From contig JAMOPP010000161.1 in assembly GCA_027064405.1 (NCBI GenBank), positions 1 through 35,724 on the forward strand: a DNA stretch of 35,724 nucleotides. Direction: 5' to 3'. Numbering within the stretch: the stretch's first letter is position 1; each line of letters begins with the position of its first letter. Below the pieces are notes generated by a model, which was given only the letters and a program-made list of their open reading frames with translations, was not told where the DNA came from and ran no database searches. The stretch comes from Desulfurellales bacterium. GTDB taxonomy: Bacteria; Campylobacterota_A; Desulfurellia; Desulfurellales; Hippeaceae. The position numbers were made by a program, and so were the translations under genes. This document shows, piece by piece, positions 5,570 to 30,153 of the stretch.

Positions 5570-6292
5570 TTAATATTTTCTTTTGAGTATTTCTTTTTGT
5601 AATCCTGCAATAGCTTTTGTCGGGTTAAGCTCTTTAGGACAAGCGCTGATACAGTTCAAGATTGTATGACATCTCCATACGCCGTGAATACTATTAACAG
5701 CATCAAGCCTCTCATCAGAACCTTGATCTCTCGTATCAAAAACAAATCTTGCAGCATTAAGCATAGCTGATGGTCCGAGATAGTCAGGATCAGCCCAATA
5801 TGACGGACATGAACTTGAACAACATCCGCACAAGATACACTCATACAAACCGTCCAATTTCGCTCTATCCTCAGGACTCTGAAGTCTTTCTCTTCCCGGA
5901 GGCGGATCCTTTTCGATAAGATAAGGTTTAACAACATAATACTTATTGAAGAAATCTTCAAAATCACATACTAAATCTTTTATTATAGGAAAACCCGGAA
6001 GAGGTTTAATTGTCAACACATTTGCATTGTAATCCTCTATATGAGACATACAAGATACCGTGTTTACACCGTTTATATTCATACCGTCAGAACCGCAAAC
6101 ACCTTCTCTGCAGCTTCTTCTGTAGGTTAAGGTATGATCCTGCTCCCATTTTATCTGGTTTAATCCATCCAAAACCATCATACCTGTACGGGTAATTGTT
6201 ACTTCGTAATCCTTGTAGTAGGGAGCCTTGTCTTTTTCCGGGTCGTATCTAAATATCTTAAATACTACTTTATCTCCTTCTTTTAAAGCCAT
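5570..6292 (-). CDS. sdhB: succinate dehydrogenase/fumarate reductase iron-sulfur subunit
   Basis: 240 aa with three Cys clusters: CREGVCGSDGMNINGVNTVSC (2Fe-2S), CILCGCCSSSCP (4Fe-4S), CHTILNCISACP (3Fe-4S). GGGAGG SD lies upstream. Confidence 0.9.
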   Translation of the reverse strand: MALKEGDKVVFKIFRYDPEKDKAPYYKDYEVTITRTGMMVLDGLNQIKWEQDHTLTYRRSCREGVCGSDGMNINGVNTVSCMSHIEDYNANVLTIKPLPGFPIIKDLVCDFEDFFNKYYVVKPYLIEKDPPPGRERLQSPEDRAKLDGLYECILCGCCSSSCPSYWADPDYLGPSAMLNAARFVFDTRDQGSDERLDAVNSIHGVWRCHTILNCISACPKELNPTKAIAGLQKEILKRKY

Positions 6293-6307
6293 TTCTCATC
6301 CTCCCTT

Positions 6308-8122: not shown

Positions 8123-8140
8123 TACTAAAAGCCTCCTTTT

Positions 8141-8515
8141 TTAACCCTTAAACGGTAGTACCGTTATAGCTGCCAAAACCAAATAAACTATTCCGACAAC
8201 CCAGAAAAAACCCTTCCAGAATACTCTCCAACCTGAATGGACATAATCTTCTATAACCATAAAAATACCATTTATACCATGATAAAGGGCAAAAACAACA
8301 AATGTTAAATCGAATATTTTCCAGCCTAAGGAAGCAAATCTTGCAGCTACAGCCTGATATGTCAATCCGGTGTGGCCAACAAAATGTTCAACGAAAAAGT
8401 GCCCCAAAAGTAAAACAAGAAGTGCTACTCCCGACACTCTCTGAAGCAACCAATTCCATTCGCCACTCTTTGCACTTCCTTGATACCTATCTATGAATCC
8501 CCTCATGTACATCAT
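8141..8515 (-). CDS. sdhD: succinate dehydrogenase/fumarate reductase membrane anchor subunit (SdhD-like)
   Basis: 124 aa, about 3 TM helices, candidate heme-ligand His in LYHGINGI. AGGAGG SD is present. It sits between the sdhC-like and sdhA genes. Confidence 0.7.
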   Translation of the reverse strand: MMYMRGFIDRYQGSAKSGEWNWLLQRVSGVALLVLLLGHFFVEHFVGHTGLTYQAVAARFASLGWKIFDLTFVVFALYHGINGIFMVIEDYVHSGWRVFWKGFFWVVGIVYLVLAAITVLPFKG

Positions 8516-8533
8516 CTGATATTTACCTCCTTA

Positions 8534-8911
8534 TTACAGCTTCATAATCATAGGTATTGCACCAGCCACAAATACTATGGCAAAGATAACCCAAAAAATC
8601 CAAACATTACCCTTGTAATTACTTCTCTCCGCAGCCCCTGCGAAGTTAGTTAGAACTACCCTTAAACCATTAACAGCATGATACGATGCAACCAACCATA
8701 GCCCTATCTCCAATACCTTAAACACAGGATTTTCCAACACAGCTATTGCCTTAGTGAAGGACTCCGGAGTCTGAAGTGTTGTTATTGCCCATTCATGTAT
8801 GAAGAGATAAAAAATCAACAACAAGCCTGTTATACGATGAAAAAGCCAGGCAACAAAACCTTCGTGCCATTTGTACTGAATATGATGCAATCGTCCATTA
8901 TACCAATCCAT
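8534..8911 (-). CDS. sdhC: succinate dehydrogenase/fumarate reductase cytochrome b subunit (SdhC-like)
   Basis: About 3 TM helices, with FHRITG and SYHAVNG motifs. The start is ambiguous. ATG 8911 gives a 125-aa subunit that matches SdhD in size. The longest ORF starts at TTG 8956, directly abutting a GAGGAAGGAGG purine tract. Confidence 0.7.
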   Translation of the reverse strand: MDWYNGRLHHIQYKWHEGFVAWLFHRITGLLLIFYLFIHEWAITTLQTPESFTKAIAVLENPVFKVLEIGLWLVASYHAVNGLRVVLTNFAGAAERSNYKGNVWIFWVIFAIVFVAGAIPMIMKL

Positions 8912-8982
8912 AATTCTTTCGGCCACAATATAAATACATGGAAATTGTAGCCTCAACCTCCTTCCTCAAAAAATTTACTCCA

Positions 8983-9011
8983 AGATTACTAAATAATTAA
9001 ATATTTGTCAA
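8983..9011 (-). promoter_or_regulatory. candidate sigma70-like promoter for sdhCDAB
   Basis: Minus strand: TTGACA (9011..9006), 17 nt, TAATCT (8988..8983). It lies just downstream of the fumB hairpin. Confidence 0.35.
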
Positions 9012-9019
9012 GAAAATAA

Positions 9020-9051
9020 GGATTAACCCCGTATTAAAACAGAGTTAATCC
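9020..9051 (-). terminator. weak hairpin after fumB (possible terminator of mdh-fumAB)
   Basis: GGATTAAC / GTTAATCC form an 8-bp stem with a 16-nt loop, followed on the minus strand by ttattttctt. Confidence 0.3.
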
Positions 9052-9063
9052 AAATTAATTTGA

Positions 9064-9627
9064 TTATAGTCTGTTAGCCCACTCTTTTTTTGCCATTTCG
9101 TATAAATCATTTCCGTGTGAATCGTAGCATACAAAAAGAGGCATATCTTCCACCTCAAGTCTTCTTACAGCTTCAGGTCCAAGTTCAGGATATGCTATAA
9201 TTTCAGCTTTTTTAACAGCCTGTCCTACCACAGCAGCAGCTCCGCCTATTGAAGCGAAGTAGCAAGCTTTGTATTTAACACAAGCATCTTTAACTTCCTG
9301 ACTCATCTTACCTTTACCTATCATACCTTTTTGACCTTTAGCAATCAAAATAGGAGCAAAGCTATTCATTCTGTAACTTGTTGTAGGTCCTGCTGAGCCT
9401 ATTGGTTTACCGGGTCTTGCCGGTGAAGGTCCTACATAATAAATAACTTGTCCTTTAGGGTCAAACGGCAAATCTTCGCCCTTTTCCAACGATGCAACTA
9501 TTCTCATATGAGCAGCATCTCTTGCCGTATATATTACACCTGACAAAAAAACACTGTCTCCGGCTTTTAACTTTATAATATCTTCATCGCTCAACGGCGT
9601 CGTCATTTTGTACTCTGCCATATTCAC
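9064..9627 (-). CDS. fumB: class I (Fe-S) fumarate hydratase, beta/C-terminal subunit
   Basis: 187 aa. The pattern GVIYTARDAAH...GPTTSYRM...GKG is typical of two-subunit FumA/TtdB-type hydrolyases. It lies 6 nt after the alpha-subunit gene. Confidence 0.88.
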   Translation of the reverse strand: MNMAEYKMTTPLSDEDIIKLKAGDSVFLSGVIYTARDAAHMRIVASLEKGEDLPFDPKGQVIYYVGPSPARPGKPIGSAGPTTSYRMNSFAPILIAKGQKGMIGKGKMSQEVKDACVKYKACYFASIGGAAAVVGQAVKKAEIIAYPELGPEAVRRLEVEDMPLFVCYDSHGNDLYEMAKKEWANRL

Positions 9628-9633
9628 ACTCCT

Positions 9634-10482
9634 TTAAAGCTCTGTCTCTTTGTGCCTATTTACGTGACAAGCCGTGTTGATAGCCAAAGGCAATGTTGCT
9701 ATGTGGCAAGGCTCCATCTCTATATGCACAGCAAGACATGTTGTTAAACCACCCAAACCGGCAGGTCCTACACCTGAATTATTGATTTTAGTTAATATTT
9801 CCTTTTCCATATCAGCCAAATCAGGATCTGTGCTAGGTTCGCCCACTTTTCTTAGAGTTGCATGCTTAGCCATAACAGCACTTCTTTCAAAATCCGCTCC
9901 TATACCCACACCTATTATCGTGGGAGGGCAAGGATTCGGACCGGCCTCTATGACCCAATCAACGACAGTCTTAACAATTCCATCTCTGCCGTCTGCAGGT
10001 TTTAGCATCTGAACCTTACTCATAGATTCACTGCCACCGCCCTTTGCGTCAAAGACGATTTTAACCTTATCTCCAGGTACAACAAATGTGTGAATTATTG
10101 CAGGAAGATTGTTTCCATAATTTGCTCTTGTTAAAGGATGGCATGAAGACTTTCTTAGGTAACCATCTTTATATGCCCTTTCAACGCCACTATTGATGGC
10201 ATCTACTATATAGCCGTCTACAAAATGAACATCCTGCCCAACTTCCACAAACAAAATACCTAAACCGGTATCTTGACAAAGAGGAAACTCTTCTTTTGAC
10301 GATACTTCAATGTTGCTAAAAATCGTATCGAAAACCTTTTTTGCTACTTCCGATTTTTCCTTTGCGTAAGCTTCTTTTTCTGCAGCCAATACATCCTCAG
10401 GTATATGGTATGCTGCATCCAATGCCATTTTATATACTGCTTGCTCTACATCTTTTACGCTTACCTCTCTCACTTTAGCCAT
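9634..10482 (-). CDS. fumA: class I (Fe-S) fumarate hydratase, alpha/N-terminal subunit
   Basis: 282 aa. It has PLCQDTG and cluster-Cys contexts (CPPTIIGVGIG) typical of the class I fumarase/tartrate dehydratase alpha subunit. Confidence 0.88.
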   Translation of the reverse strand: MAKVREVSVKDVEQAVYKMALDAAYHIPEDVLAAEKEAYAKEKSEVAKKVFDTIFSNIEVSSKEEFPLCQDTGLGILFVEVGQDVHFVDGYIVDAINSGVERAYKDGYLRKSSCHPLTRANYGNNLPAIIHTFVVPGDKVKIVFDAKGGGSESMSKVQMLKPADGRDGIVKTVVDWVIEAGPNPCPPTIIGVGIGADFERSAVMAKHATLRKVGEPSTDPDLADMEKEILTKINNSGVGPAGLGGLTTCLAVHIEMEPCHIATLPLAINTACHVNRHKETEL

Positions 10483-10503
10483 AATAAGATTCCTCTATTT
10501 ATT

Positions 10504-11460
10504 TTATAAAAGTTTAAGATCGTCAACTCTCTTGCATATTTCTGCTACATGATCTGCTGATTTCTGTAATTCAGCTTTCTCCTGCTCTGACAAATCTATC
10601 TCTATAATTTCTTCCACTCCGCCATTTCCAAGCTTCACAGGAACGCCAACAGGAAGATCATTTATACCATACTGTCCGTGCAAGAACGCATGGCAAGGTA
10701 TAACCGCTTTTTCATCTCTCAAAATAGATTCCGTCATCCAAGATAGACCTGCAGCAGGTGCCCAATAAGCACTTCCTTTCTTTAGAAGTTTTACTATTTC
10801 TCCGCCACCCTTTCTTGCTCTATCAACGATTTCTTCCAATCTGCCAGCTTCAATTAATTTATTTACAGGAACACCGTAAATCTGAGAATAATCCCTTAAA
10901 GGCACCATATCATCACCATGACTTCCAAGAGTCATTCCCCATACATTCTTAACCGATACACCCTTCTCAGCAGCCAAGAATGACATAAACCTAGCTGAAT
11001 CCAAAGCACCTGCCTGTCCTACAAGACGATTATCAGGGAATCCTGTAACCTTTTTTGCTGCATAAATCATAGCATCCAAAGGATTGGCTACTACGAGGAA
11101 TATACTATTAGGAGCATATTTTGCCACATTTTCCGCAACCTGTCTCATAATAGGAATATTCTTACCCAACAAATCATCCCTGCTCATTCCCGGCAATCTT
11201 GGGAAACCTGCTGTCATAACAACAACATCCGAATCCTCGATAGCTGCATAAATTTCGCCCTTTGATGAGCCTTTAATTTTAGTATCAAAGCCCAAAATAG
11301 GAGCAGATTCCATCATATCAAGAGCTTTTCCTTCAGGAAGATCCTCAACGACATCTGTCATTACTATCTCATCTGCTATTCCTCTCATAGCCATGATGAA
11401 AGCAGCAGACTCACCGACATGACCTGCACCGATTATACTGACTTTACGAATACCTAACAT
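10504..11460 (-). CDS. mdh: NAD-dependent malate dehydrogenase (LDH-like family)
   Basis: 318 aa. Rossmann fold KVSIIGAGHVG, substrate loop AGFPRLPGMSRDDLL, catalytic region GSHGD. GGAGG SD lies 7 nt upstream. Confidence 0.9.
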   Translation of the reverse strand: MLGIRKVSIIGAGHVGESAAFIMAMRGIADEIVMTDVVEDLPEGKALDMMESAPILGFDTKIKGSSKGEIYAAIEDSDVVVMTAGFPRLPGMSRDDLLGKNIPIMRQVAENVAKYAPNSIFLVVANPLDAMIYAAKKVTGFPDNRLVGQAGALDSARFMSFLAAEKGVSVKNVWGMTLGSHGDDMVPLRDYSQIYGVPVNKLIEAGRLEEIVDRARKGGGEIVKLLKKGSAYWAPAAGLSWMTESILRDEKAVIPCHAFLHGQYGINDLPVGVPVKLGNGGVEEIIEIDLSEQEKAELQKSADHVAEICKRVDDLKLL

Positions 11461-19208: not shown

Positions 19209-21083
19209 CTAAGCTATAAAGAAAGTTAAAATAAAAATTACAAGTATATAAAATATATAGATATAAATTTTGCCGTTCATTAAATATCTGCTTGTTACAT
19301 TGCCCATACTAATAAATGCATTGCGAAAAAAAGAATAGAAAAATTCCATTCTATCTTCAGCTACAACGCTACATACCTGATTTTTTTTAATTTCTTTCGT
19401 ATTGTATACCTTCTTTAATATGTATTTAAGTATGTACGAGTAGGCATCCGCAGTAAAATATTCTTTTTCTTTTAATTCAAGTCCGCCGTTCCACGATGTA
19501 ACCTTTTTTACTCTTTTGTTGGTCGCAAGGTATATTAAAAACGGCACTATAAACAGAATAAGCGCAACTATAGCAAAATAGGTTGGAGCCAAAACTCCGA
19601 ATACCGGCTTGCCTGAAAGTATAAGAAACGGCTTTGAAACGGATAAAGCACCTGATAACATATAGGAATAACCGCTTAATTTAATAATAAACGGAGCACC
19701 TATGCCTGTTAAAATCACTAAAATTATAAGAAAGATTTCTGAAAATTTCATAAAAAACGAAGGTGTCTTAACGGTTTTTTTATCATGGTCGTAACCCAAC
19801 GCCGTGTATCCTATAAGTTTAACCATCGAAAAACCTGTCAATCCTATGGCAAGCGCTATCAAAAGGCCGGATACCGTTGTGAAAAATTTTTCCGCATCGT
19901 TTACAAGTTTATAGGATTGAAACACAGACTCAAGAAGCATCCACTCCCCTACATACCCTGCAAGAGGGGGAAATGCACTGAAAGATAGAGACGATATCAG
20001 CACCCCGAGTGCAGGAGTTTTTCCAACACCCTTCCAGATTCCCCTAATATCATCAATAGTGTCAGCCTTGTATGCCTTTTTAGCATGCCCTATTGATAGA
20101 AACATAAGAGTTTTTGAAAATGTGTGAGCCGCAATAAGGATTATAGCTGTAACAAAAGCAAAATGAGACAGATAGTTCAAAGAACTGTAATTTAATGTAA
20201 GAGCGGAAAGCCCGAGTATAGATAATATCATACCATTATTTTCAACCGTAGAATATGCAGGAAGCGTTTTTACACCACTTGCAGCTACAGCCTGCAAAGC
20301 ACCCCAAAATGCAGACACCGCACCAAGCGTAGTGAGCGTTATCGCCCACCATTGAGGAAAAGCACTACTTGATAAAATTATTTTAGAAATTCCATATGCG
20401 CCAAGAAGTGTCATCGGAGCACTCAATATAGCACAGGTGTTTGACGGGTCTTTTGAATAAACATCCTTCATCCAAGTATGAAAAGGCGTTACATCCATTT
20501 TTATCAAAAATCCCAAAGATGCAAAAACGGTAAAAACAGCCGTATTATTCTGGAATATTATGGTTGTATGATTTGTAAAATACGTGTATGCAAACCCGGC
20601 CATTAAACTCAATGCCGACAGTTCTCCATATGCCAAAAAGCCGTATGCTTTTCCAAAAGGCACTCTTCTTTCGATTAATATCAATAAAAATGAAAAGATG
20701 GTCATAAGTTCCCAACCTGCAAGAAAAGTTATGGAATCATTGGCTACAAAAACTATGAGCATACTTAAAAATACTATATTAAAAAACGCAGATGTCGATT
20801 TTTCGTGAGTTGCACCGTGATCTATGGAAAATAAGGATATAGCTGCCCACGATAATGATGCTACTGCCAAAAAAACAGCGCTGCTCTTATCAAGAAAAGC
20901 ATTAAGAACAATACTGTCCGTTAAATGTATGTTGTAGATAACAAGTTTTTGGCTAAATGTCGCACAAGCCGTCGCAAATGATGCAAGAGAACCAAAAAAA
21001 GCTAAAATATATCCCCATCGATTTGAAAAAGATGCAACAATGCCAAGTATAAACAGTGCTACCGCAATTATAAAAAATGTCAT
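19209..21083 (-). CDS. HyfB/NuoL/MrpA-type antiporter-like membrane subunit
   Basis: 624 aa polytopic protein with LAGWELMT (TM5 Glu) and LIKMDVTPFHTWMKD (Lys + HxW motif). It overlaps the small-subunit gene by 4 nt (ATGA). Confidence 0.8.
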   Translation of the reverse strand: MTFFIIAVALFILGIVASFSNRWGYILAFFGSLASFATACATFSQKLVIYNIHLTDSIVLNAFLDKSSAVFLAVASLSWAAISLFSIDHGATHEKSTSAFFNIVFLSMLIVFVANDSITFLAGWELMTIFSFLLILIERRVPFGKAYGFLAYGELSALSLMAGFAYTYFTNHTTIIFQNNTAVFTVFASLGFLIKMDVTPFHTWMKDVYSKDPSNTCAILSAPMTLLGAYGISKIILSSSAFPQWWAITLTTLGAVSAFWGALQAVAASGVKTLPAYSTVENNGMILSILGLSALTLNYSSLNYLSHFAFVTAIILIAAHTFSKTLMFLSIGHAKKAYKADTIDDIRGIWKGVGKTPALGVLISSLSFSAFPPLAGYVGEWMLLESVFQSYKLVNDAEKFFTTVSGLLIALAIGLTGFSMVKLIGYTALGYDHDKKTVKTPSFFMKFSEIFLIILVILTGIGAPFIIKLSGYSYMLSGALSVSKPFLILSGKPVFGVLAPTYFAIVALILFIVPFLIYLATNKRVKKVTSWNGGLELKEKEYFTADAYSYILKYILKKVYNTKEIKKNQVCSVVAEDRMEFFYSFFRNAFISMGNVTSRYLMNGKIYIYIFYILVIFILTFFIA

Positions 21084-21544
21084 TTTGCACCTCGATTTGC
21101 TACTTTTAATAAAACTGCCAAAATTTCATCCGGCGTGGGCAGAAAGTCAATTTTGCCAACTATATGTTTTTTATCTATAAAATCCGAATAATCATCGTAT
21201 TCTTTGCATCCGTTAATTATAAGAATACCAAATTGATTCGGCATCTGATTTATTGTTTCCTTCAAAGGTTCAACCATTTTACGATTCACGGGACCTGCTA
21301 TGATAAGCAAATCTGCATGTCGCGGAACTGCTGTAAAAAATATACCGAATCTGTGAGTGTTGTATTGAGGAGACTGCAAAGCCTTGAATGTAAAATTGAG
21401 GGCATTTGAATTACCAGTATCTATAACAAAAATATGAAGAGATTTTGAAAAAACCCCGCCCAAAGGTTTAATATCAATATCAGTGTCGTATCGTTTTTTC
21501 TCTGTTAAGTTTTGTTTTAAACCGTGAAATGGCCAAAATTTCAT
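21080..21544 (-). CDS. NuoB/HycG/EchC-like small subunit homolog lacking the [4Fe-4S] cysteine set
   Basis: 154 aa. The core RFGIFFTAVPRHADLLIIAGPVNRKM matches the family signature (ERFGI..ASPRHADVLLVTGPVT). The Cys motifs are replaced: GSCNGCE becomes TGNSNALN, GCPP becomes FLPTP, and only NGCK retains one Cys. Confidence 0.75.
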   Translation of the reverse strand: MKFWPFHGLKQNLTEKKRYDTDIDIKPLGGVFSKSLHIFVIDTGNSNALNFTFKALQSPQYNTHRFGIFFTAVPRHADLLIIAGPVNRKMVEPLKETINQMPNQFGILIINGCKEYDDYSDFIDKKHIVGKIDFLPTPDEILAVLLKVANRGAK

Positions 21545-21559
21545 AAAAATTTCTCCAAA

Positions 21560-22783
21560 TTATCTTGCAGCATCTGCAAAATTAACACCAAAAGATTCAA
21601 CGGTAAACACAAAATCCGTAAAAATCTGATTTACAAGAGAATCAGCAATTGCTTTAAATCCCGTAACGGACGGTGTTACCACATAAATATTTTTTATTTT
21701 CGAATTCTCAATTTCTACATAGTATGCCATAGTGCCACTCGGAGACTCTACAGCTTCCACGCAGCTTCCGTCAGATATATCCAATCTTTGAGCTTTTTCC
21801 TTTGAAGTATCAAGATTTTCCACATTCTTTTCTATGAATTTAATTGAATCAAGAATTTCATATGCCCTCACTTCCATTCTTGAAAGAGAGTCCCCCTCTT
21901 TTTTTGAAATAACTTCAAAATTCTCATAATCATTTGTCCTTAAATCCTCTGCTATACCGCTTGCACGGCAAGACGGACCGCTCAAACCTATTTCAACCGC
22001 TTTTTGAGCTGTTATTATGCCGGTATTGTGAAGTCTGTCTAAAAAGTTTCCGCTTTGAAGTGAGCCGCTGTATAAATCCTCGAACCTCGATTTTATATTT
22101 TGAAGTCTTAACAACAAATCCTTCTTTTTTTCATAAGATAAAGATATATCAAGTTTTCCTATTTGATTTATATTTGTTAGAAATCTATCTCCGGTAAAGG
22201 ATTCATTTGCCCTAAGCGATTCCTCGAAAAGATAATAAAGATGTGATGATAGAACCTTTTGCGCTGCACCATTTGCAAGCTGAGCTATAACATAAATATG
22301 GTTGTAGATTCTTTCAAGTTCAAGCAGTATCCCTCTTAGTATGCGTGTTTCGTCGTCTATTTTAATATTAGATATAGACTCAACCGCCTTTGAAAATGCT
22401 ATTGAGTGAGAAATGGCAAAATTTCCGCATATTGATTCTGCAAGTGCAACCGACTCCAACGGATTTTTACCTATCATCAGCTTTTCTATATTTCTTTTTT
22501 TGTATGTTGTATCTATATTTACAGAGAGAATTTTTTCTCCATATGTGTATATATTGTAAATTCCGGCTTCGCCTACGCCGCCTGTAACGGGTCCGTATCT
22601 AAAATTAAAAACACCATCTCCTTCAACCGCTTCTCCCCCTATTAAGCTATCCCTATTAATAAGGGTTTTATAGTTCGGAAAATCGCTACCTTTACAGGAG
22701 GCATCTATTTTTACATTCATCGATTTATCCTGCACTATACACAGTTCACTGTTGTTATTTTGTACTACTCCAAGTAACTTCAT
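21560..22783 (-). CDS. group 4 [NiFe]-hydrogenase large subunit / NuoD-like protein lacking Ni-Fe ligands
   Basis: 407 aa. Family pattern: FRYGPVTGG, TYKKRNIEK, LAESICGNFAISH (canonical RxCGxCxxxH), LLELERIYNH. The C-terminus ESFGVNFADAAR replaces the canonical DPCxxCxxR. Confidence 0.8.
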   Translation of the reverse strand: MKLLGVVQNNNSELCIVQDKSMNVKIDASCKGSDFPNYKTLINRDSLIGGEAVEGDGVFNFRYGPVTGGVGEAGIYNIYTYGEKILSVNIDTTYKKRNIEKLMIGKNPLESVALAESICGNFAISHSIAFSKAVESISNIKIDDETRILRGILLELERIYNHIYVIAQLANGAAQKVLSSHLYYLFEESLRANESFTGDRFLTNINQIGKLDISLSYEKKKDLLLRLQNIKSRFEDLYSGSLQSGNFLDRLHNTGIITAQKAVEIGLSGPSCRASGIAEDLRTNDYENFEVISKKEGDSLSRMEVRAYEILDSIKFIEKNVENLDTSKEKAQRLDISDGSCVEAVESPSGTMAYYVEIENSKIKNIYVVTPSVTGFKAIADSLVNQIFTDFVFTVESFGVNFADAAR

Positions 22784-24153
22784 TATCTTATCACTCCTGC
22801 AAGAAGCAGATTAAATTTAGGTATCAAAAAAATAGTTAAAAATGCCAAGATGATATGCATAGCGGGTATTAAATTTACAAGCATATGCCTTTCGTTACTC
22901 TCCGCCTCTTCCTTTGAAAAAATCATCTTTCCCGTGTAATAGTTAACCGATATAAAAGCCAATGAAGCAAAGAGTGCAAACACTACAACACTTATTATTC
23001 CGTAAACCTCATAAAGTTTTGACATAATCAATATCTCACCTGCAAAAGTCGCAAATGGCGGTGCTCCTGTTGCTGCCAATGATGCAAAAAATAGGCTGTA
23101 TGCAGTAAAAGGCATATGATTGAACAGGTTCTTTACTTCATCGATACGAGTTTTTTTTGTTCTTATTAAAATATTGCCACTTAAATAAAAAACAGCCGAT
23201 TTTGCAAATGCATGGGCAACTATAACAATCACCGAACCTAAAATTGCGTATCTCCCAAGAGATATACCTATTAAAGCTATTCCCATATTTTCCATAGAAG
23301 AGTAGGCATAAAGCCTCTTGTAATATTTCTGAACAGTGCTTAGGGTTGCCGCTGTTACAAGTGTTAGAAAACCGAGAATAAACATAAACTCTTTGACAAT
23401 GTGTGAAGAATACACCTCTGTCGTTCTAAATATACCAAAAAGAGCAACCGGAAGCAGAACGCCTGAAAATATTGCGCTAATCGGCGACGGAGCTTTTCCG
23501 TGAACATCAGGAAGCCAACTGTGCATAGGGAATATTCCGGCTTTTGTGCCGTAACCTACAACTGCCATCAATATTCCTAAGGTTATTATTTTATCATTTA
23601 CACCATGCATAGATGCAAGTTTCACAAAATCCAGAGTTCCTCCCGCTCCGAATATAAAAACATTTCCAAAAAGAGAAACAACAAGACCGACCGAAACTAT
23701 TATTATATATCTCCAGGTAGCCTCTATCGATTCTTTGGAATTTTCTATGGCAACCAAAAGTGCACTTGTAATTGTTGTGGCTTCTATACCGACCCATATC
23801 AGACCGAGATTTTTAACCATAACACTAAAAAGCATACTGAAAGTGAAAAGGTTTAGCCATAAAAAATAAAAATTTTGTTTTAAAAGAGGGTTATGTATAT
23901 GTTTTATGTAACTTATCGAATAGATGGTTGTTCCCATATATATGATAGATATGGTAAAAAGCATAATTTTAGACGCCCCGTCTATGTAGATAAAATAGTG
24001 TGAAAAATTTTGACTAAAGGCAATTGCAATGGAAGATACAAGCGTTAGAATAGAAAACAGAACGGATGAATATTGAGACAGCTTGTCTATTTTAATTAGG
24101 GATACAGTCGCTGCCACAAGCGTAAAAATTAAAGGCAAAGTGTAAAATATCAT
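22783..24153 (-). CDS. HyfF/HyfD/NuoN/MrpD-type antiporter-like membrane subunit
   Basis: 456 aa polytopic protein with IWVGIEATTITSALLV and GTKAGIFPMHSWLPDVHGKAPSPISA motifs. It shares 1-nt overlaps with both neighbours. Confidence 0.8.
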   Translation of the reverse strand: MIFYTLPLIFTLVAATVSLIKIDKLSQYSSVLFSILTLVSSIAIAFSQNFSHYFIYIDGASKIMLFTISIIYMGTTIYSISYIKHIHNPLLKQNFYFLWLNLFTFSMLFSVMVKNLGLIWVGIEATTITSALLVAIENSKESIEATWRYIIIVSVGLVVSLFGNVFIFGAGGTLDFVKLASMHGVNDKIITLGILMAVVGYGTKAGIFPMHSWLPDVHGKAPSPISAIFSGVLLPVALFGIFRTTEVYSSHIVKEFMFILGFLTLVTAATLSTVQKYYKRLYAYSSMENMGIALIGISLGRYAILGSVIVIVAHAFAKSAVFYLSGNILIRTKKTRIDEVKNLFNHMPFTAYSLFFASLAATGAPPFATFAGEILIMSKLYEVYGIISVVVFALFASLAFISVNYYTGKMIFSKEEAESNERHMLVNLIPAMHIILAFLTIFLIPKFNLLLAGVIR

Positions 24154-24154
24154 A

Positions 24155-24793
24155 TCAACCCTTCAGCTCTTCACTGTTTTCTAAAGAATCCGGAACAAAA
24201 TTTTCTCTCAATCTGCCTATCAAACTCGATATCATCACAACCCCTATCAAATCCAAAACAACACCGGCTTCAATAGTTAGTGAAAGACCGGGATAAAAAT
24301 ATGTGCCAAAAATAAGAATAGAATTTTCCATAATCATATAACCCACAAGCTGCGTAAATGCATTCCGTTTTGAAATCATTAAAAATACGCCCTGAAACAT
24401 CAATGAAAGCAGTACCGCTCCGCTCCTTATCTGCAAATCATCATATAAGCTTACATAGTACACAAAATATCCTACAACTGCACTCAAGATTGAGAATATT
24501 ATTGACGATGCAATTCCAAATGTAGGCTGCGTTTCCCTTGCTCTCCATTTTTCTTTCTTCAGCTTCTTAATCATAAAATAGGGTATAAAAATAACCCTCA
24601 CAAGAAGCGTTAAAAGAGCAACATATATCACCACAGGCTCTTTCGTATTCATTCCTATATACAATAAAAAGGAAGCCATAAAAAAAGAACTAATTGAAAA
24701 AGTAATTATTGTTTTTTTAATATAAACCTGCCACTGCATAAAAATAACAAGAAGAACCTCAATCGACCCGAAAAGTAAAAGCATTTTATCCAT
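24155..24793 (-). CDS. HyfE-like membrane subunit (NuoK-related)
   Basis: 212 aa. The C-terminal half ISKRNAFTQLVGYMIMENSILIFG...EAGVVLDLIGVVMI...ELKG parallels my recollection of E. coli HyfE (VSQRNILRQIFGYCLMENGSHLV...LTALKG). Confidence 0.75.
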   Translation of the reverse strand: MDKMLLLFGSIEVLLVIFMQWQVYIKKTIITFSISSFFMASFLLYIGMNTKEPVVIYVALLTLLVRVIFIPYFMIKKLKKEKWRARETQPTFGIASSIIFSILSAVVGYFVYYVSLYDDLQIRSGAVLLSLMFQGVFLMISKRNAFTQLVGYMIMENSILIFGTYFYPGLSLTIEAGVVLDLIGVVMISSLIGRLRENFVPDSLENSEELKG

Positions 24794-25746
24794 TAGAATA
24801 TCCCGTTTGCCGCATATATTGCAAGCATACCTATTAGAATAACAGAAAATGTAACAGCTATATAATCAAAAATTTTATACAATCGATACTTTGAAACAGT
24901 TTCGTTTATAAAAGCAAAAATAATAACAAGGGTAAACATTTTTAAAAGATGAATACCGGAATAGATAAATACAGCACTTAAAGATGTATATTTCATAGGA
25001 ACCCAAAACGGACATGCATAAACATTTAAAAATACACTCATAAGCAGAAACTGTTTTATATATCCGCCCCATTTATATACGGCGAGGTCACTTCCTGAAA
25101 ACTCCATCTCCATAGATTGATCTATCATACCAAATTCTCCGTGAGTTTTGGCTTCAATGGGCAGTTTTCCCGTTTCTACTATTAAGTTCATAAAAAATGT
25201 AGCCGCTATAAATATATGAACAACCGAGAAATACCAGGAGCTGGAGGTTTGGAATACATTGTTAATAACATAAGGATTGTTTGTATTTGAAATAACACCG
25301 CACAAAATAAAGAGCAAAACCGTAATAGGCTCTGAAAGTGCACCTATACTGGATGCCCTTGCAGTTCCAAGATGTGAATAGTTGTTTCTACTATCCAGCG
25401 CAACGATTTTCTTTATTATACCCGCAGCGCCAAAAATGAGACCTCCTCCAATAAAATCTGCCGTAGGACCAAAAGCCAAAGGAAATGCGGTAATAATGGG
25501 CAAGATGATAATAATCAACATATAAAGTGCAAAATTAATATATGGACCTATTCTAAATACGCCTGATGCAACCTTTGGGACTACATTTTCCTTTGTGAAG
25601 AGTTTATGTAGGTCATAGTAAGGCTGAAAAATAGTGGGACCCGCTTTGGATTCCATCTTTTCTTCCACTGTCGAGAGTATGCCTACTATTAACGGTGCAA
25701 AAAGAATTACATATACAAGTTGGATGAAACTTAAAGCGACTAACAT
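24793..25746 (-). CDS. HyfC/HycD/NuoH-like membrane subunit
   Basis: 317 aa. KMESKAGPTIFQPYYDLHKLFTKE matches the NuoH/HycD N-terminal loop signature (Q.R.GP...QP..D..KL..KE). AGGAG SD lies 4 nt upstream. Confidence 0.8.
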   Translation of the reverse strand: MLVALSFIQLVYVILFAPLIVGILSTVEEKMESKAGPTIFQPYYDLHKLFTKENVVPKVASGVFRIGPYINFALYMLIIIILPIITAFPLAFGPTADFIGGGLIFGAAGIIKKIVALDSRNNYSHLGTARASSIGALSEPITVLLFILCGVISNTNNPYVINNVFQTSSSWYFSVVHIFIAATFFMNLIVETGKLPIEAKTHGEFGMIDQSMEMEFSGSDLAVYKWGGYIKQFLLMSVFLNVYACPFWVPMKYTSLSAVFIYSGIHLLKMFTLVIIFAFINETVSKYRLYKIFDYIAVTFSVILIGMLAIYAANGIF

Positions 25747-25748
25747 CA

Positions 25749-25775
25749 GACTCCTCTGTCTTTGAGTTAGGAGTC
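25749..25775 (-). promoter_or_regulatory. leader hairpin that pairs the SD of the first operon gene
   Basis: Minus strand: GACTCCT-aactcaaagacag-AGGAGTC-tg-ATG(25746). The 3' arm is the SD itself. Confidence 0.3.
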
Positions 25776-25910
25776 ATTGGCTTAAAAAATAAGCGGTTAA
25801 AGGTGAACCCCTCCACCTTATAGTTTCACGGCTTTTAACAGATTTTCATTTATATGTCAAGTTAAAAAACAAATCTAAAATATATACAAAATCTCCTCAC
25901 ACTATTATAC

Positions 25911-27743
25911 TCAGTCCTGTTTTTCACTCATCACAGTCTTATTTCTACCTGAATTTTTTGCTTTGTAAAGAGCTAAATCCGCAAGTTTTATGGCTTTGTC
26001 AAAATTGTTATCATTACCCGAAAATTCGCTTACACCTATACTTATGGTGACATTGATAGATGTGCCGTTTATTTTTATGCTACTTGATTCAACTCTTTTC
26101 CTTATATTCTCGGCAATCTCAAAAGAATTCTTTTTATCCGCATTTATAAGGAAAATTAAAAACTCCTCTCCGCCGAAACGAACAACAACATCAGACTCTC
26201 TAACGCTTTTTGTCATAATTTTTGCTACATTTTTCAATACTTCATCCCCCACATCATGCCCGTATGTGTCGTTAACTTTCTTGAAAAAGTCAATATCGCA
26301 CATAAGTATTCCCAATTTATTACCACTTCTTCTTGCGTTTTTTATTATCAAATCCTCGGTTCTCGATACAAATCTTCTATTGTATAGACCCGTTAATTCG
26401 TCATACAACGCAATCTTCTTTAAATCGTTTTCATACCTTCTAACCCGCTTTATTAAACTGTTAAATTTGTCTATTATGTAGCTTAACTCTTTTATTGCAC
26501 ATTTTTGGCTATCTATCGATCTCGAATGTCTTAAAGATTGATCAAACTCATTGAACAATTTATCGGTATAGCTTCTCGTAACTTTTTTAAGAATAAACAA
26601 AAACAACAAAGCAACAACCATCATAAGCAAAATCAAAAATACGATTGTATGTTTTATTGCATTCAAATGCGCTATAGCTACAGAAACCCGAGTATTAATA
26701 ATGGGCTTTAAATCGTTGATATATATCCCTGTTGCAAAAATCCAGTGCCAGGGTTTATACAACCTAAAACAACTTATCTTTTTCTCCACTTTATCTGAAT
26801 TCGGCACTTTATAGTAGTATTCAACAAATGAATAACCTTTATTTCTTATATCCTTTAAAAAAATTTTTCTAAACTTAAAACCCCTTACATCTGTATATTC
26901 ATCCGACATACATTTATTCAACAAGTCAGGCCTGTTTACATTAACCAACATTTTTCCAAAGCAGTTGCCACCATTTATGTTTAGAAGTTTGATAACAAAT
27001 ATATAACCGTGATTATCCTTACCGTATCTATACAAAGAAAGTTGATTTAACCATTTTCGCTTCAACCTTCCCTCTAAATACTCAGTATCAATTCTTGTAA
27101 CAAGAACCCAGTCAAACGGTTTGTAATATTTTACAAAGGTTATACCCTTTTGCTTAATTGATGCGGGATTTAAATCGTACCAATTGGACACGAAATACTG
27201 ATTAATAAAATCCTCTTTTTTTGTTTTTGCTGTTTTTATAATGTCTCTTATTATAGAATTTCCCTTAAAATCTTTCAAATTAATAAAGTTTTTACCTTCA
27301 GCATTTATATCGTAAGGATTTACTACACAATTACCTTTTGCATCAAAAATATAATAAGAGATTGACGGATCTGAAAATGTTTTATCTTCAAGGTATCTTC
27401 TTAAAAGTAGCTTCATTTTCTTTTTTGTCGCATATTCACCATACATCATACGCATATGCTCTAAATGTTTATATATTACCCGATTCATTATAACCTCTTT
27501 TTTCATATCAGCTACATCTTGTTTTCTTTCACTGTCAATGGTTTTTATTATATTTTCTATCATTGATTTGGCATACTGTTTCGAGTTGTCCATATATACT
27601 TTCTTGATTGTCTCAATGTCATCTTTGGCAACCTTTTCACTTGTATAATACCAATAGCCTGCAAAAACAGCAGAAACTATTATGGATATAATCAAAAAGA
27701 CAGATATTATAAAGCTTATAGCAGATATATTTTTAATCTTCAC
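25911..27743 (-). CDS. membrane sensor diguanylate cyclase: two tandem Cache modules, TM, GGDEF
   Basis: Cache hallmarks (KPFDWVLVTRIDTEYL; KPWHWIFATGIYINDL). GGDEF domain with DELTGLYNRRF, DIDFFKKVNDTYGHDVGDEVL and RFGGEEF, plus an RESD I-site. GTG 27743 (GAGGGTG SD 5 nt upstream) is preferred over the track's ATG 27779. Confidence 0.85.
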   Translation of the reverse strand: MKIKNISAISFIISVFLIISIIVSAVFAGYWYYTSEKVAKDDIETIKKVYMDNSKQYAKSMIENIIKTIDSERKQDVADMKKEVIMNRVIYKHLEHMRMMYGEYATKKKMKLLLRRYLEDKTFSDPSISYYIFDAKGNCVVNPYDINAEGKNFINLKDFKGNSIIRDIIKTAKTKKEDFINQYFVSNWYDLNPASIKQKGITFVKYYKPFDWVLVTRIDTEYLEGRLKRKWLNQLSLYRYGKDNHGYIFVIKLLNINGGNCFGKMLVNVNRPDLLNKCMSDEYTDVRGFKFRKIFLKDIRNKGYSFVEYYYKVPNSDKVEKKISCFRLYKPWHWIFATGIYINDLKPIINTRVSVAIAHLNAIKHTIVFLILLMMVVALLFLFILKKVTRSYTDKLFNEFDQSLRHSRSIDSQKCAIKELSYIIDKFNSLIKRVRRYENDLKKIALYDELTGLYNRRFVSRTEDLIIKNARRSGNKLGILMCDIDFFKKVNDTYGHDVGDEVLKNVAKIMTKSVRESDVVVRFGGEEFLIFLINADKKNSFEIAENIRKRVESSSIKINGTSINVTISIGVSEFSGNDNNFDKAIKLADLALYKAKNSGRNKTVMSEKQD

Positions 27744-30153
27744 TATTGCACCCTCTTTTTGTATTAACCTTATAAACAAGCTCTTCTACTGTTTCCGCAT
27801 CATCAGGATAAATAGCATAATTTATATCAAAATCAACATAATCCACAACACTCTTACCATCCTTATCTTTCATTGTATAGAATTCACTATTAGAAAAAGC
27901 ATTCTTAAATTCATCTTTTAGCTTTTTCTTAGACCTTTTCATCATTTCAGTTTCTTTATTGATATTTCGCTCTTTTTTGAGTTCGTGTGCAATAAAAAAT
28001 ATATCAGCATAAGCCCTTGACACAAGTTGTTTTTTACATATATCCGGCTCCTCTTTGGATAAATTAAGAAGTACTTGAGCCATACTTATAATTACAGCAT
28101 CCCCTGCCTGCTCAGAAAACATATAGTTAATTCTTGAAATCTGTTTTATATTGATTCTAATAAAAACAAATCTTCTTTTTTCATCTATTAATTTCTGAAT
28201 TTCTTTTAAAAATACAGACCTTAATTCCAATCCTGTCATATAATCAACCTTAAAAATCTCATTTCTCATAATATCTACATCATAAGACATAAACCTCACT
28301 TCCGTGAAATCTTCTTGCGTATAAGACTCAATAAGCACAGATTCTACCTTCTGCAAAATTTCTTTATCAACACTCTCCTGTTTCAATATTTCCATAGCCT
28401 TACTTGGTGAAAATGCATGCCTGTATGGTCTTGTTGTTGTCAAGGCATCAAAGATATCCGCAATGGCAAGTATTTTTGCACCAATTGTAATCTCGCCACA
28501 TTTTAAACCGTCAGGATATCCGCTACCGTCACACTTTTCGTGATGTCCCCTTACGCAGTTTGCAAAAGATTTAAAATGTTCTAACTCTTTTAAAATTTCA
28601 TAAGAGAAAACAGGATGATATTTCATTATTCTATACTCATTCTCTGATAATTTTCCGGGCTTTAAGAGTATATTGTCAGGTATTCCTATTTTTCCTATGT
28701 CATGCAAAAGTCCGGCTTTGTAGATATACTCCTGCTTTTTTGTATCTAAACCCAATGTTTTAGCTATTTTTTTGGCATAGTAGGCTACCCTTTGAGAATG
28801 ACCTTTTGTGTATACATCTCTTGCTTCCATAATGTTGACAAAAGATTGTATAAATTCATCTTCGTAAATATTGTCTATTTCCGCCTTTTTATCCAACATT
28901 TTATTTGCGTTTAATGCCATTATTCTCAGCTCTTTTAATTCAATTTCTCTCAAATTAATCTTTTTATCCTTTAAGGCAGCATCTTGAAAAAACGAAGTAA
29001 AAACATTAAAGTCATTCTTTAATTTTTTATACAAACCATAATATAAAAATATAGAAAACAATATTAGTAAAAATGATATAGAAATCACCATTATAACACG
29101 ATAAAACATTTTTCTATACAGATTTTGTTTTATCAATGTTGTCATATTTTCTATCTCATCGGTATATACGCCTGCACCCACTATCCAATTCCACTCTTTT
29201 ATTCCATACACAAACGAAATTTTAGGATATTCTTTCTTTGAATTATCTATCTTAGGCCAAGAATAGTATATAAATCCTCCATCCTTCTTTAACGCTGCAA
29301 TCTTTTCTTTTTCGAATACGGTTTTTGCCTTTTCTCCAAAAGCAGACCATAGCTTTTTCCCATTTTCAATAACCCTACCGTTAGAAGATAAAATATATCC
29401 GTCAAAAGTATTAACAAATACATACCCGCCGTTTTCAAACCTTATTTTGCTTATTTCACCAATAATATATTTTTGTGTTTCATATCTTAAATCATCAACA
29501 TATACACCTGTACCTATCAACCAATTAAACGGCTTAAACTCCTTTACATAGGCTATTTTTAAAAACTTTTTACCCTCCTGATGCGGTTTAGACCAATGGT
29601 ATGAATAAACACCCTCCTGCTGTTTTTTTACTATTTCAATCATATCCTTTACGACATACTTCCCATCTACATCCCGCACAGCAAGCATATTTTTGCCCTC
29701 AAATTCAGGCTTGTCAGGAAAAAGCTCTTCGATTCCATCAAGATTTGTTGCAAAATAGTATCCATTTCCCCTTAAAAAACGCATAGGACGCAAAGCATCT
29801 TTGACCATCTTTTTAATTTCAGGCAGGCTTTTTTTGTCTTTATTTTTCCGATAGATATTTTCCGCTATAGCGCATGCTTCATATACCCTCTGCCTAACCC
29901 TTTCCGCAGCCTGTTTTCTGCTTGTCTTAATTTGGTATCCAATCATATCAACGACAGACATAACCTCTTGCTTTACAAGCTGTTTTTGGCTATCTGTATA
30001 TTCAGCTCTCATCATTGACGCTAAATAATTAAGATTTTTGTGCACAACAAATATCTGTAACGCAAGCATTAATACAGATGCAAAAATCAATGCAACCGTA
30101 GCCATTTTCATTACGCTATTTACGGATTTTACTTTTTTGCTATTTTGCCTCAA
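27733..30153 (-). CDS. membrane sensor HD-GYP phosphodiesterase: two tandem Cache modules, TM, HD-GYP, degenerate C-terminal GGDEF-like domain
   Basis: Cache hallmarks (KPFNWLIGTGVYVDDL; WNWIVGAGVYTDEI). HD-GYP motifs are complete: GHSQRVA, LLHDIGKIGIPD, HHEKCDGSGYPDGL, IADIFDAL. The C-terminus is GGDEF-fold-like, but DxD reads INIK and GGDEF reads YADIF. Confidence 0.85.
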   Translation of the reverse strand: MRQNSKKVKSVNSVMKMATVALIFASVLMLALQIFVVHKNLNYLASMMRAEYTDSQKQLVKQEVMSVVDMIGYQIKTSRKQAAERVRQRVYEACAIAENIYRKNKDKKSLPEIKKMVKDALRPMRFLRGNGYYFATNLDGIEELFPDKPEFEGKNMLAVRDVDGKYVVKDMIEIVKKQQEGVYSYHWSKPHQEGKKFLKIAYVKEFKPFNWLIGTGVYVDDLRYETQKYIIGEISKIRFENGGYVFVNTFDGYILSSNGRVIENGKKLWSAFGEKAKTVFEKEKIAALKKDGGFIYYSWPKIDNSKKEYPKISFVYGIKEWNWIVGAGVYTDEIENMTTLIKQNLYRKMFYRVIMVISISFLLILFSIFLYYGLYKKLKNDFNVFTSFFQDAALKDKKINLREIELKELRIMALNANKMLDKKAEIDNIYEDEFIQSFVNIMEARDVYTKGHSQRVAYYAKKIAKTLGLDTKKQEYIYKAGLLHDIGKIGIPDNILLKPGKLSENEYRIMKYHPVFSYEILKELEHFKSFANCVRGHHEKCDGSGYPDGLKCGEITIGAKILAIADIFDALTTTRPYRHAFSPSKAMEILKQESVDKEILQKVESVLIESYTQEDFTEVRFMSYDVDIMRNEIFKVDYMTGLELRSVFLKEIQKLIDEKRRFVFIRINIKQISRINYMFSEQAGDAVIISMAQVLLNLSKEEPDICKKQLVSRAYADIFFIAHELKKERNINKETEMMKRSKKKLKDEFKNAFSNSEFYTMKDKDGKSVVDYVDFDINYAIYPDDAETVEELVYKVNTKRGCNSED

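Follow-up and report, generated by a model that had tools for sequence, protein, structure and literature searches.

A probably cofactor-free Ehr-type complex with conserved ion-pathway residues in an uncultured relative of Hippea

The contig JAMOPP010000161.1 of a Desulfurellales bacterium (assembly GCA_027064405.1), of which positions 1 to 35,724 were analyzed and are referred to here as the window, carries at positions 21560..22783 of the minus strand an open reading frame (ORF) that specifies a 407-residue protein with the fold of the [NiFe]-hydrogenase/NuoD large subunit and without its metal site. We are confident that this protein is the large subunit (EhrL) of an energy-converting hydrogenase-related (Ehr) complex. 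GroEL from the window is 83-85% identical to that of Hippea species, which identifies the host as an uncultured relative of this genus within the Desulfurellales. The complex found here is neither a hydrogenase nor a quinone reductase, because the Ni-Fe site, the [4Fe-4S] cluster of the small subunit, the NuoC-like domain and the ferredoxin module have all been lost. Instead, the sequences of its subunits point to a cofactor-poor, probably cofactor-free type of Ehr complex whose ion-pathway residues are intact. The explanation that we favor as a whole, namely an Ehr-type complex that acts as a redox-independent ion translocator, has in our estimate a probability of about 0.45, and the alternatives to it are taken up below alongside the evidence that bears on each.

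Ehr complexes were named in Geobacter (Coppi 2005 and Marreiros 2013, consulted here as they are cited in PMC3569383, PMC10284858 and PMC12342949) and are defined by loss of the NiFe cysteines (CxxC motifs) from a large subunit that otherwise resembles those of group 4 (PMC3569383, PMC10284858). Their function is given as unknown in papers up to 2025, with a redox role usually assumed (PMC3569383, PMC10284858, PMC6349859, PMC7894505, PMC12342949, PMC13194489), and our search of the literature, which took in the two founding papers by way of those citing them, found no demonstrated function for an Ehr complex and no Ehr structure. A large subunit that lacks CxxC motifs is therefore a known kind, and the first-pass annotation of the window, which was made from the sequence alone and drew attention to this gene, had rediscovered it. 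The clade to which the window belongs is a more extreme Ehr variant, and we found no description of it in the literature searched.

The EhrL ORF, the fourth of six genes, begins with ATG and ends at a TAA stop codon without read-through, and the identical protein is present in two independent assemblies. EhrL matches the Pfam families PF00346 (E = 5e-28) and PF00374 (E = 2e-13), and a profile of the EhrL family matches MbhL (6cfw_L, E = 9e-37) and HycE (7z0s_E, E = 2e-32) in the Protein Data Bank (PDB). An AlphaFold2 (AF2) model of EhrL, for which 25 relatives were used, has a predicted local distance difference test score (pLDDT) of 89.4 and a predicted template-modeling score of 0.91. When this model was submitted to Foldseek the top match was HycE (7z0s_E, E = 1e-22, template-modeling score 0.83, root-mean-square deviation 2.1 A), and MbhL (6cfw_L) was matched with a template-modeling score of 0.79. 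Together these matches bear out the earlier proposal that the hydrogenase large-subunit scaffold is kept, and they firmly establish EhrL as a homologue of the group-4 [NiFe]-hydrogenase large subunit, with a similarity far beyond chance. In public records, members of the EhrL clade are named either "Ni,Fe-hydrogenase III large subunit" or "NADH-ubiquinone oxidoreductase".

To map the ligand positions we aligned EhrL with E. coli HycE, HyfG and NuoCD and with both Cys-containing and Cys-less relatives; the residue counts that follow refer to a clade alignment of 56 sequences (55 aligned sequences for the β1-β2 loop). One of the four Ni-Fe cysteines is kept: HycE C241 corresponds to EhrL C119, and HycE C244, C531 and C534 correspond to F122, N401 and D404, respectively. 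The cleavage-site Arg of HycE, R537, falls on R407, which is the final residue of EhrL, while the Arg of the RxCGxC motif falls on S117 and the canopy Arg of the ExPRG motif on S349. The same ligand mapping was obtained from the ungapped C-terminal pattern, which reads SFELCYSCTDR in the nearest Cys-containing, 4f-like relatives and SFGVNFADAAR in EhrL, and from a HMMER alignment of EhrL to MbhL. Residues 116-126 of EhrL read ESICGNFAISH and residues 394-407 read TVESFGVNFADAAR. The first-pass annotation had described an N-terminal motif in which the Arg is lost and the second Cys is Phe, a C terminus in which both cysteines are absent and the terminal Arg is preserved, and thus a single remaining Ni-Fe cysteine out of four, all of which agrees with the alignment. 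HycE runs on for 32 residues past R537, a segment that we take to be the cleaved propeptide. EhrL, which has no C-terminal extension, ends at the mature-end Arg and therefore requires no processing protease, as had been anticipated. Among the Pfam-scanned ORFs of the 35.7-kb window we found no hyp genes, no maturation protease (hycI) and no ferredoxin-type subunit.

We considered several ways in which EhrL might still house a cofactor or a quinone. Besides C119, EhrL contains cysteines at positions 15, 30, 272 and 341, each of which was rejected as a substitute ligand, since none lies in a ligand column and C15 and C341 are unconserved (position 341 is Gly in 45 of 56 relatives). The Cys within the motif PSCRASG and a second one had initially been numbered 283 and 361; their actual positions are 272 and 341. 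Selenocysteine or read-through at the C terminus was also rejected, as the stop codon is TAA and is followed by the ribosome-binding site of EhrS. With regard to quinone, we sought the Tyr/His pair of NuoD in EhrL by alignment and found that Y273 of E. coli NuoCD falls on G120 (Gly, Ser or Ala across the clade) and H224 on G71, in a loop that contains no His; with Gly at both positions, a NuoD-type quinone site was rejected. Of the two observations that the first-pass annotation had named as speaking against its view, other cysteines at the ligand positions and a NuoD-type quinone pocket, neither was made.

The former active site of EhrL is frozen in a new state. In the relic of the L1 motif (RxCGxCxxxH), which spans residues 114-127 (22403..22444, minus strand; LAESICGNFAISHS), C119 is found in 54 of 56 sequences and N121, F122 and H126 in all of them. 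The relic of the L2 motif (DPCxxCxxR), at residues 396-407 (21563..21598, minus strand; ESFGVNFADAAR), has F402 and D404 in all 56 sequences and R407 in 40, with position 401 varying between N, H, F, Y and S. Each of C119, N121, F122, H126, F402 and D404 is thus present in 54-56 of the 56 sequences; over the whole protein, 66 of 407 residues are at least 95% conserved. D404, at the fourth ligand position (C4), aligns with the Asp of "SDVDR" in E. coli NuoCD. The ExPRG motif survives as ESPSG (residues 346-350; 21734..21748, minus strand), in which Ser349 takes the place of the canopy Arg and which is itself well conserved (S347 in 55 of 56 sequences, P348 in 56, S349 in 52 and G350 in 56); its counterpart in HycE is APRG, and NuoC-fused Cys-less relatives mostly retain the canopy Arg. 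Finally, the β1-β2 loop (residues 59-75; 22559..22609, minus strand; FNFRYGPVTGGVGEAGI) is the counterpart of the loop that carries the quinone His in complex I. Within it R62, Y63, G64, P65 and G74 are present in 55 of 55 aligned sequences and the stretch FRYGPVT is near-invariant. Because pLDDT falls below 50 at residues 65-71 of the AF2 model, this loop may be mobile.

The strict conservation of the loop and the pocket residues keeps alive an explanation other than the one we favor, in which the relic pocket (C119, N121, H126, D404 and the loop), together with the cavity of the membrane subunit EhrB, would take a small polar substrate whose binding or non-redox conversion is coupled to ion flow. 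A parallel would be the hydration of CO2 by DAB and by the cyanobacterial NDH-1/Cup systems, which is powered by antiporter-like proteins. Such an arrangement would account for the invariance of N121, F122, H126 and D404, for the near-invariance of C119 and FRYGPVT, and for a loop modeled as flexible, as in complex I, where the loop transmits events at the substrate site; in addition EhrB, which would form the floor of the cavity, is the most conserved subunit and bears clade-specific invariant charges. However, several of the nearest outgroups carry Ala, Gln, Asn, Ser or Val in place of C119 while retaining GNF..SH and an acidic residue at C4, so C119 is unlikely to be a catalytic nucleophile and looks instead like a mere relic. 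A C119-H126-D404 catalytic triad, which we also considered, was held unlikely on the basis of these outgroups. Furthermore, position 401 varies, Phe at both 122 and 402 suggests that the pocket is filled, and the cassette includes no carbonic-anhydrase-like or other enzyme domain and has no conserved metabolic neighbor. On balance we regard a ligand-binding or catalytic complex of this kind as unlikely.

EhrL differs from its relatives at the N terminus as well. Residues 1-55 (22619..22783, minus strand) are modeled by AF2 as a clade-specific, β-rich domain with strands at residues 2-9, 12-18 and 24-27 and a helix at residues 38-42 (block-mean pLDDT 88-92). This domain is found in all members of the EhrL clade, with L3 and G5 nearly invariant, and has no match in Pfam. 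MAFFT had set the extension under the end of the NuoC domain of HycE, but comparison with NuoC-like domains using hhalign returned a probability of only 7%, the sole shared feature being the EGxGVF that opens the core, and we therefore rejected the idea that the extension is a vestige of NuoC. The earlier judgment that it is too short for a NuoC domain stands; its length is about 55 rather than about 60 residues. Our guess is that this domain may substitute for contacts made elsewhere by NuoC.

The more unusual loss is that in the small subunit EhrS (21080..21544, minus strand), which lay outside the region covered by the first-pass annotation. EhrS is a NuoB/HycG-like protein of 154 residues that matches MbhJ (6cfw_J) with E = 1e-11 and that lacks the ligands of the [4Fe-4S] cluster: when compared with MbhJ, HycG, HyfI and NuoB, the four ligand columns contain S46, L49, C113 and a deletion or Thr. 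Among 53 EhrS orthologues, 43 have none of the four ligand cysteines and 25 have no Cys at all. Eight retain two or three ligand cysteines (three in loci L011, L029 and L037; two in L018, L033, L035, L044 and L053), although the second ligand is kept in none; these eight come from Mesoaciditoga-type Thermotogota, from Spirochaetota and from one Puia-labeled metagenome-assembled genome (Bacteroidota). The first 20 residues of EhrS align with the HycF/NuoI-like leader of fusion proteins from sister clades, and of that segment only the leader (FWPFHGLKQNLTEKKRY) is retained.

These cysteine counts bear most directly on the possibility that the complex is a redox enzyme in disguise. Electrons or a sulfur species would then be delivered by a partner whose gene lies elsewhere, such as a formate dehydrogenase or a carrier of sulfane sulfur, and the chemistry would take place on Cys119 or on an unrecognized cofactor, along lines already proposed for MBS and for other Ehr complexes. 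With 43 of the 53 EhrS proteins devoid of ligand cysteines, and 25 of any Cys, electrons have no wire along which to reach the pocket from the surface. The complex also lacks NuoC, a NuoI/HycF-like ferredoxin and the Tyr and His that would serve a quinone, and no redox gene recurs beside the cassette in the 58 loci described below. In favor of a redox enzyme are the eight clade members in which EhrS keeps two or three cysteines, as well as the hosts, for cultured members of several of the host genera (Hippea, Mesoaciditoga) are sulfur reducers. In the literature, moreover, ion translocation by Ehr complexes is presumed to be coupled to a redox reaction in the cytoplasm (PMC6349859; bioRxiv 10.1101/765248). 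Weighing these points, we consider a hidden redox enzyme improbable.

EhrL and EhrS are specified by a translationally coupled six-gene operon on the minus strand with the order EhrB-EhrC-EhrD-EhrL-EhrS-EhrA, in which neighboring genes share 1-4 nt or lie 1-15 nt apart. The start of EhrC and the stop of EhrB share 1 nt, the stop of EhrD and the start of EhrL overlap as TAATG, and EhrA and EhrS overlap by 4 nt. Upstream of EhrB lies a 164-nt gap (25747..25910, minus strand) that follows an upstream GGDEF gene and contains TTGACA and, 6 nt before the ATG, GGAG; by inference from these motifs only, this gap is presumed to hold the promoter of the operon and its ribosome-binding site. Scans for promoters and terminators returned nothing above the shuffled background.

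By scanning species-representative genomes for the cassette we obtained 58 loci, and the B-C-D-L-S-A order is found in every one of these whose contig spans the cassette. At least six phyla are represented (Desulfurellales, Campylobacterota, Thermotogota, Bacteroidota, Ignavibacteria, Spirochaetota), and the loci derive largely from metagenomes of hydrothermal sites or hot springs. Comparison of close relatives in pairs gave values of dN/dS (the ratio of nonsynonymous to synonymous substitution rates) of 0.10-0.18 in EhrL, 0.03-0.20 in EhrS and 0.02-0.18 in the membrane genes. Clustering of all flanking ORFs of the 58 loci, in search of a seventh gene or a redox partner, revealed no family that is universal and none present in more than 12 loci; scanning of the recurrent flanking families identified no recognizable redox enzyme and no metabolic neighbor that would hint at a substrate.

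Taken together, the synteny across 58 loci, the dN/dS values of 0.02-0.2 and the conserved residues indicate that the cassette is still functional and is not a decaying pseudogene. The Geobacter ehr genes have been suggested to be a non-functional remnant (PMC13194489), and a decaying hydrogenase operon would indeed be expected to look like this in one respect, in that all recognizable catalytic cofactor sites are lost. Against this stand six intact and tightly coupled ORFs that keep the same order in 58 genomes, purifying values of dN/dS in every gene and proton-pathway residues that are 95-100% conserved, and we regard a mere remnant as very improbable.

The proton-pathway residues in question are those of the four membrane subunits, mapped with reference to the Nuo, Hyf and Hyc proteins of E. 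coli. EhrB (24793..25746, minus strand; 317 residues), the product of the first gene of the operon, is a NuoH/HycD-like protein (Pfam PF00146, E = 7e-27; HycD in the PDB, 7z0s_D, E = 1.5e-26) in which 96 of 317 residues are at least 95% conserved, more than in any other subunit. Its residues D45, K48, D97, R130, E204, E215 and K269 are identical in HycD, HyfC and NuoH, and it also keeps E198 and K286, where those three proteins carry Asp and Arg. EhrB further contains invariant charged residues that are specific to the clade and absent from HycD, HyfC and NuoH (E29, E32, K112, K113, R120, H125, H177 and D209), which would fit with a polar rather than a quinone-type cavity. EhrC (24155..24793, minus strand; 212 residues) is HyfE-like and matches the NCBIfam model "hydrogenase 4 membrane subunit" with E = 2.5e-11, under the curated cut-off of that model. 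Its invariant residues E156 and E175 align with E159 and E178 of HyfE, and we read them as probable NuoK-type glutamates.

The two remaining membrane subunits are antiporter-like. EhrD (22783..24153, minus strand; 456 residues) is HyfF-like, matching PF00361 (E = 4e-57), MbsH (E = 1e-29) and, under the curated cut-off of the model, NCBIfam HyfF (E = 1e-113). Its residues E124, K204, H314, K318 and E373 are 100% conserved and align with E144, K234, H348 and E407 of E. coli NuoM and with K342 of NuoL. EhrA (19209..21083, minus strand; 624 residues), specified by the final gene of the cassette, is HyfB/NuoL-like and matches PF00361 (E = 1e-26) and, again under the curated cut-off, NCBIfam HyfB (E = 3e-95); E125, K195, H320, K324 and E380 are likewise 100% conserved. 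In both proteins these residues occupy the positions of the Glu of transmembrane helix 5 (TM5), the Lys of TM7, the His/Lys of TM11 and the Glu of TM12.

Since the complex offers electrons no site and has no conserved partner, a redox-independent ion translocator is the simplest model for it, in its plainest form a gradient-driven cation/proton exchanger with a cofactor-less cap. We advance this functional proposal tentatively and by analogy, at somewhat under even odds. A charged path would lead from the E-channel acids of EhrB through the glutamates of EhrC to the TM5 Glu, TM7 Lys, TM11 His/Lys and TM12 Glu of EhrD and EhrA, and ions would be moved along it without electron transfer, driven by an existing gradient, as in Mrp. 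EhrL and EhrS together would form a cofactor-less cap that shuts off the cavity above EhrB on the cytoplasmic side and might also gate it. The invariant residues Phe122 and Phe402 would fill the former metal pocket, as the alignment suggests, and the pair His126-Asp404 is probably a structural relic common to NuoD. There is precedent for ion movement of this type: Mrp antiporters run the same antiporter-like subunits without redox chemistry, and deactive mitochondrial complex I has been reported to be a Na+/H+ antiporter.

Several observations weigh against the redox-independent translocator. EhrD and EhrA both lack the central Lys of TM8, at whose position they have Pro235 and Leu226, respectively, and the cassette has none of the small MrpE/F/G-like subunits to which the carriage of Na+ by Mrp is attributed. 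It is not obvious that a plain cap would need the FRYGPVT loop, N121, H126 and D404 to be so strictly conserved, a pattern that would also fit a ligand-binding or catalytic site, and the filling of the pocket by Phe122 and Phe402 is a reading of the alignment. Some of the EhrS proteins with two or three cysteines may still hold a cluster, or they may be intermediates in its loss. A bolder version of the same proposal is that the complex is a naturally "redox-dead" machine of the complex I/hydrogenase type, in which a cofactor-free NuoB/NuoD/NuoH junction is coupled to a working proton-translocating arm and the cap serves as a conformational gate or sensor. We hold this version to be doubtful.

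Comparison with characterized systems helps to place the complex. The Ehr complex of Geobacter sulfurreducens (EhrA-S, GSU0739-0745) has the same gene set of EhrB, EhrC, EhrD, EhrA, EhrL and EhrS, a likeness of gene content; in Geobacter KN400, ehrA-2 and ehrB bracket the six-locus run KN400_0713-0718 (PMC13194489). Like other Ehr complexes, that of the window has a CxxC-less large subunit and a gene cluster of one NuoH-like, one HyfE-like and two antiporter-like subunits with a large and a small subunit. In contrast, the Fe-S cluster that is kept in EhrS of loci L064, L065, L066 and L068 is missing from the window and from L069. The comparison of sequences was made with L064, a NuoC-fused Cys-less relative that stood in for the Geobacter complex. 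Where L064 has a NuoC-like domain, the window has its own 55-residue domain, and relative to L064 the window's clade keeps the first ligand Cys (C1), has Asp at C4, and has lost both the canopy Arg and the cluster ligands of EhrS. As for the group-4 [NiFe] hydrogenases, their fold is present, while L1, L2, the canopy Arg and the four-cysteine cluster of the small subunit are not. Among these are hydrogenase 4 and formate hydrogenlyase of E. coli (HyfB-I and HycB-G; group 4a): HyfB, HyfE and HyfF are the best NCBIfam matches, all below the cut-off, HycD is the best PDB match of EhrB, and HycE is the best structural match of EhrL. Unlike these group 4a enzymes, the complex described here lacks NiFe ligands, a HycG-type cluster, the HycF/HycB ferredoxins, a NuoC domain and a C-terminal propeptide.

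MBS/Mbx of Pyrococcus furiosus (PDB 6u8y) is likewise a NiFe-less descendant of group 4, and MbsL matches EhrL with E = 4.5e-21. MBS, however, keeps a chain of [4Fe-4S] clusters and an Mrp-type Na+ module and reduces polysulfide with ferredoxin, whereas the complex described here lacks both the Fe-S ligands and the Mrp small subunits. The Q-module of complex I (NuoD/NuoB) has the same fold as EhrL (template-modeling score ~0.8), and both have an acidic residue at C4; in the arm, the E-channel acids of NuoH, the NuoK-type glutamates and the Glu/Lys residues of the antiporter-like subunits are conserved in the complex described here too. What sets the complex apart from complex I is the absence of the quinone Tyr/His, the N2 cluster, homologues of NuoA, NuoC, NuoE, NuoF, NuoG and NuoI, and a separate NuoJ. 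The Mrp Na+/H+ antiporter, finally, shares with it two PF00361 subunits and the same conserved Glu/Lys set (E124 and K204 in EhrD; E125 and K195 in EhrA), but has no NuoH-, NuoB- or NuoD-like subunits and does have MrpB, E, F and G, none of which is found in the cassette. Among the cassette proteins we detected no homologue of NuoC, NuoI, NuoA, a separate NuoJ or MrpB/E/F/G. By analogy the complex may work like Mrp, although it is not a member of the Mrp family.

Relatives outside the clade suggest how this state was reached. In L064 the large subunit (~515 residues) keeps the canopy Arg, has Ser at C1 and Gly at C4, and is accompanied by a small subunit with all four Fe-S cysteines. The short sister clades represented by L065, L066 and L068 share the B-C-D-L-S-A cassette, an order also found in the more distant relatives L064-L068, and have four Fe-S cysteines in the small subunit. 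In two of them (L065:7245-7868 and L066:9348-10136) the small subunit consists of a HycF/NuoI-like ferredoxin segment (CPTxAI ... CxxCxxC) fused to a NuoB-like domain. In L069, a basal member of the window's clade, EhrS is already Cys-less, and loss of the Fe-S ligands thus appears to be specific to that clade. A rough neighbor-joining tree, which has no support values and to that extent weakens our account, has the short forms nested among the NuoC-fused Cys-less proteins, a radiation that itself branches next to ~500-residue hydrogenases with all four cysteines. These relationships are consistent with stepwise reductive evolution, within the group-4 hydrogenase/Ehr radiation, in which the Ni-Fe site was lost first, the NuoC domain next and, in the window's clade, the Fe-S cluster and the ferredoxin module too. 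The closest outgroup, L068 (GCA_054026855.1, 6001-7239), has an EhrL that is 39% identical. Because its cassette sits among archaeal-type genes (RIO1 kinase, KH/PNO1-like, Endo_dU, FlpD), the Ehr cassette seems to cross the boundary between bacteria and archaea. In L065 a gene for an aldehyde:ferredoxin oxidoreductase lies directly upstream of the cassette.

Few genes recur around the cassette. A DUF6062 protein is encoded beside it in 12 of the 58 loci, from two phyla, and no other gene outside the core recurs in more than one phylum. The DUF6062 gene is found in L010 (12630-13265), L012, L013, L014, L018 and L027, directly after EhrA, and in the Bacteroidota loci L022, L028, L031, L032, L034 and L058. 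This protein, which the window lacks, has two CPxC...CxxH motifs that resemble zinc ribbons. In 11 loci the cassette is adjoined by MutS2-like genes in tandem pairs (MutS domain V, ~500-540 residues each), for example L010 (2873-5943), L012, L014, L022, L023, L028, L031, L042 and L048. Within the window, an ORF of 280 residues with an AF1548-like C-terminal domain (PF22357; 18363-19205, minus strand) begins 3 nt past the stop of EhrA and may be co-transcribed; a homologue lies near the cassette in one other locus only (L036). Directly upstream of the operon are two large cyclic di-GMP (c-di-GMP) proteins (25911-27779 and 27733-30153, both minus strand; the ORFs overlap by 47 nt), one a dCache-GGDEF diguanylate cyclase and the other an 806-residue protein with HD-GYP motifs (HDIGK ... 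GYP). A cluster for a branch of the tricarboxylic acid cycle (5570-11460, minus strand) specifies malate dehydrogenase, a two-subunit class I fumarase, two Sdh_cyt proteins, and the flavoprotein and Fe-S subunits of a succinate dehydrogenase/fumarate reductase. Outside the operon, the window as a whole is of a housekeeping character (sdh, fumarase, mdh, groES/EL, NfeD/SPFH and the c-di-GMP enzymes).

Ehr complexes are widespread, occurring in about half of Nitrospirales genomes, in Geobacter, in candidate phyla and in ammonia oxidizers, and have been without a function since 2005. Because neither cap subunit can hold a cofactor, the usual assumption of a redox role is removed for the clade to which the window belongs, which does not itself solve the function of Ehr; the question narrows to what role a complex I-type membrane arm plays when nothing is oxidized or reduced. 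The genes of such complexes should accordingly not be counted in annotation as those of hydrogenases or of NADH dehydrogenase subunits. The six-subunit complex offers a compact target for structural and transport work on coupling, and would be a minimal system for it if the "redox-dead" reading is true. In that case electron transfer would not be required for conformational coupling in the complex I superfamily to operate and to be selected.

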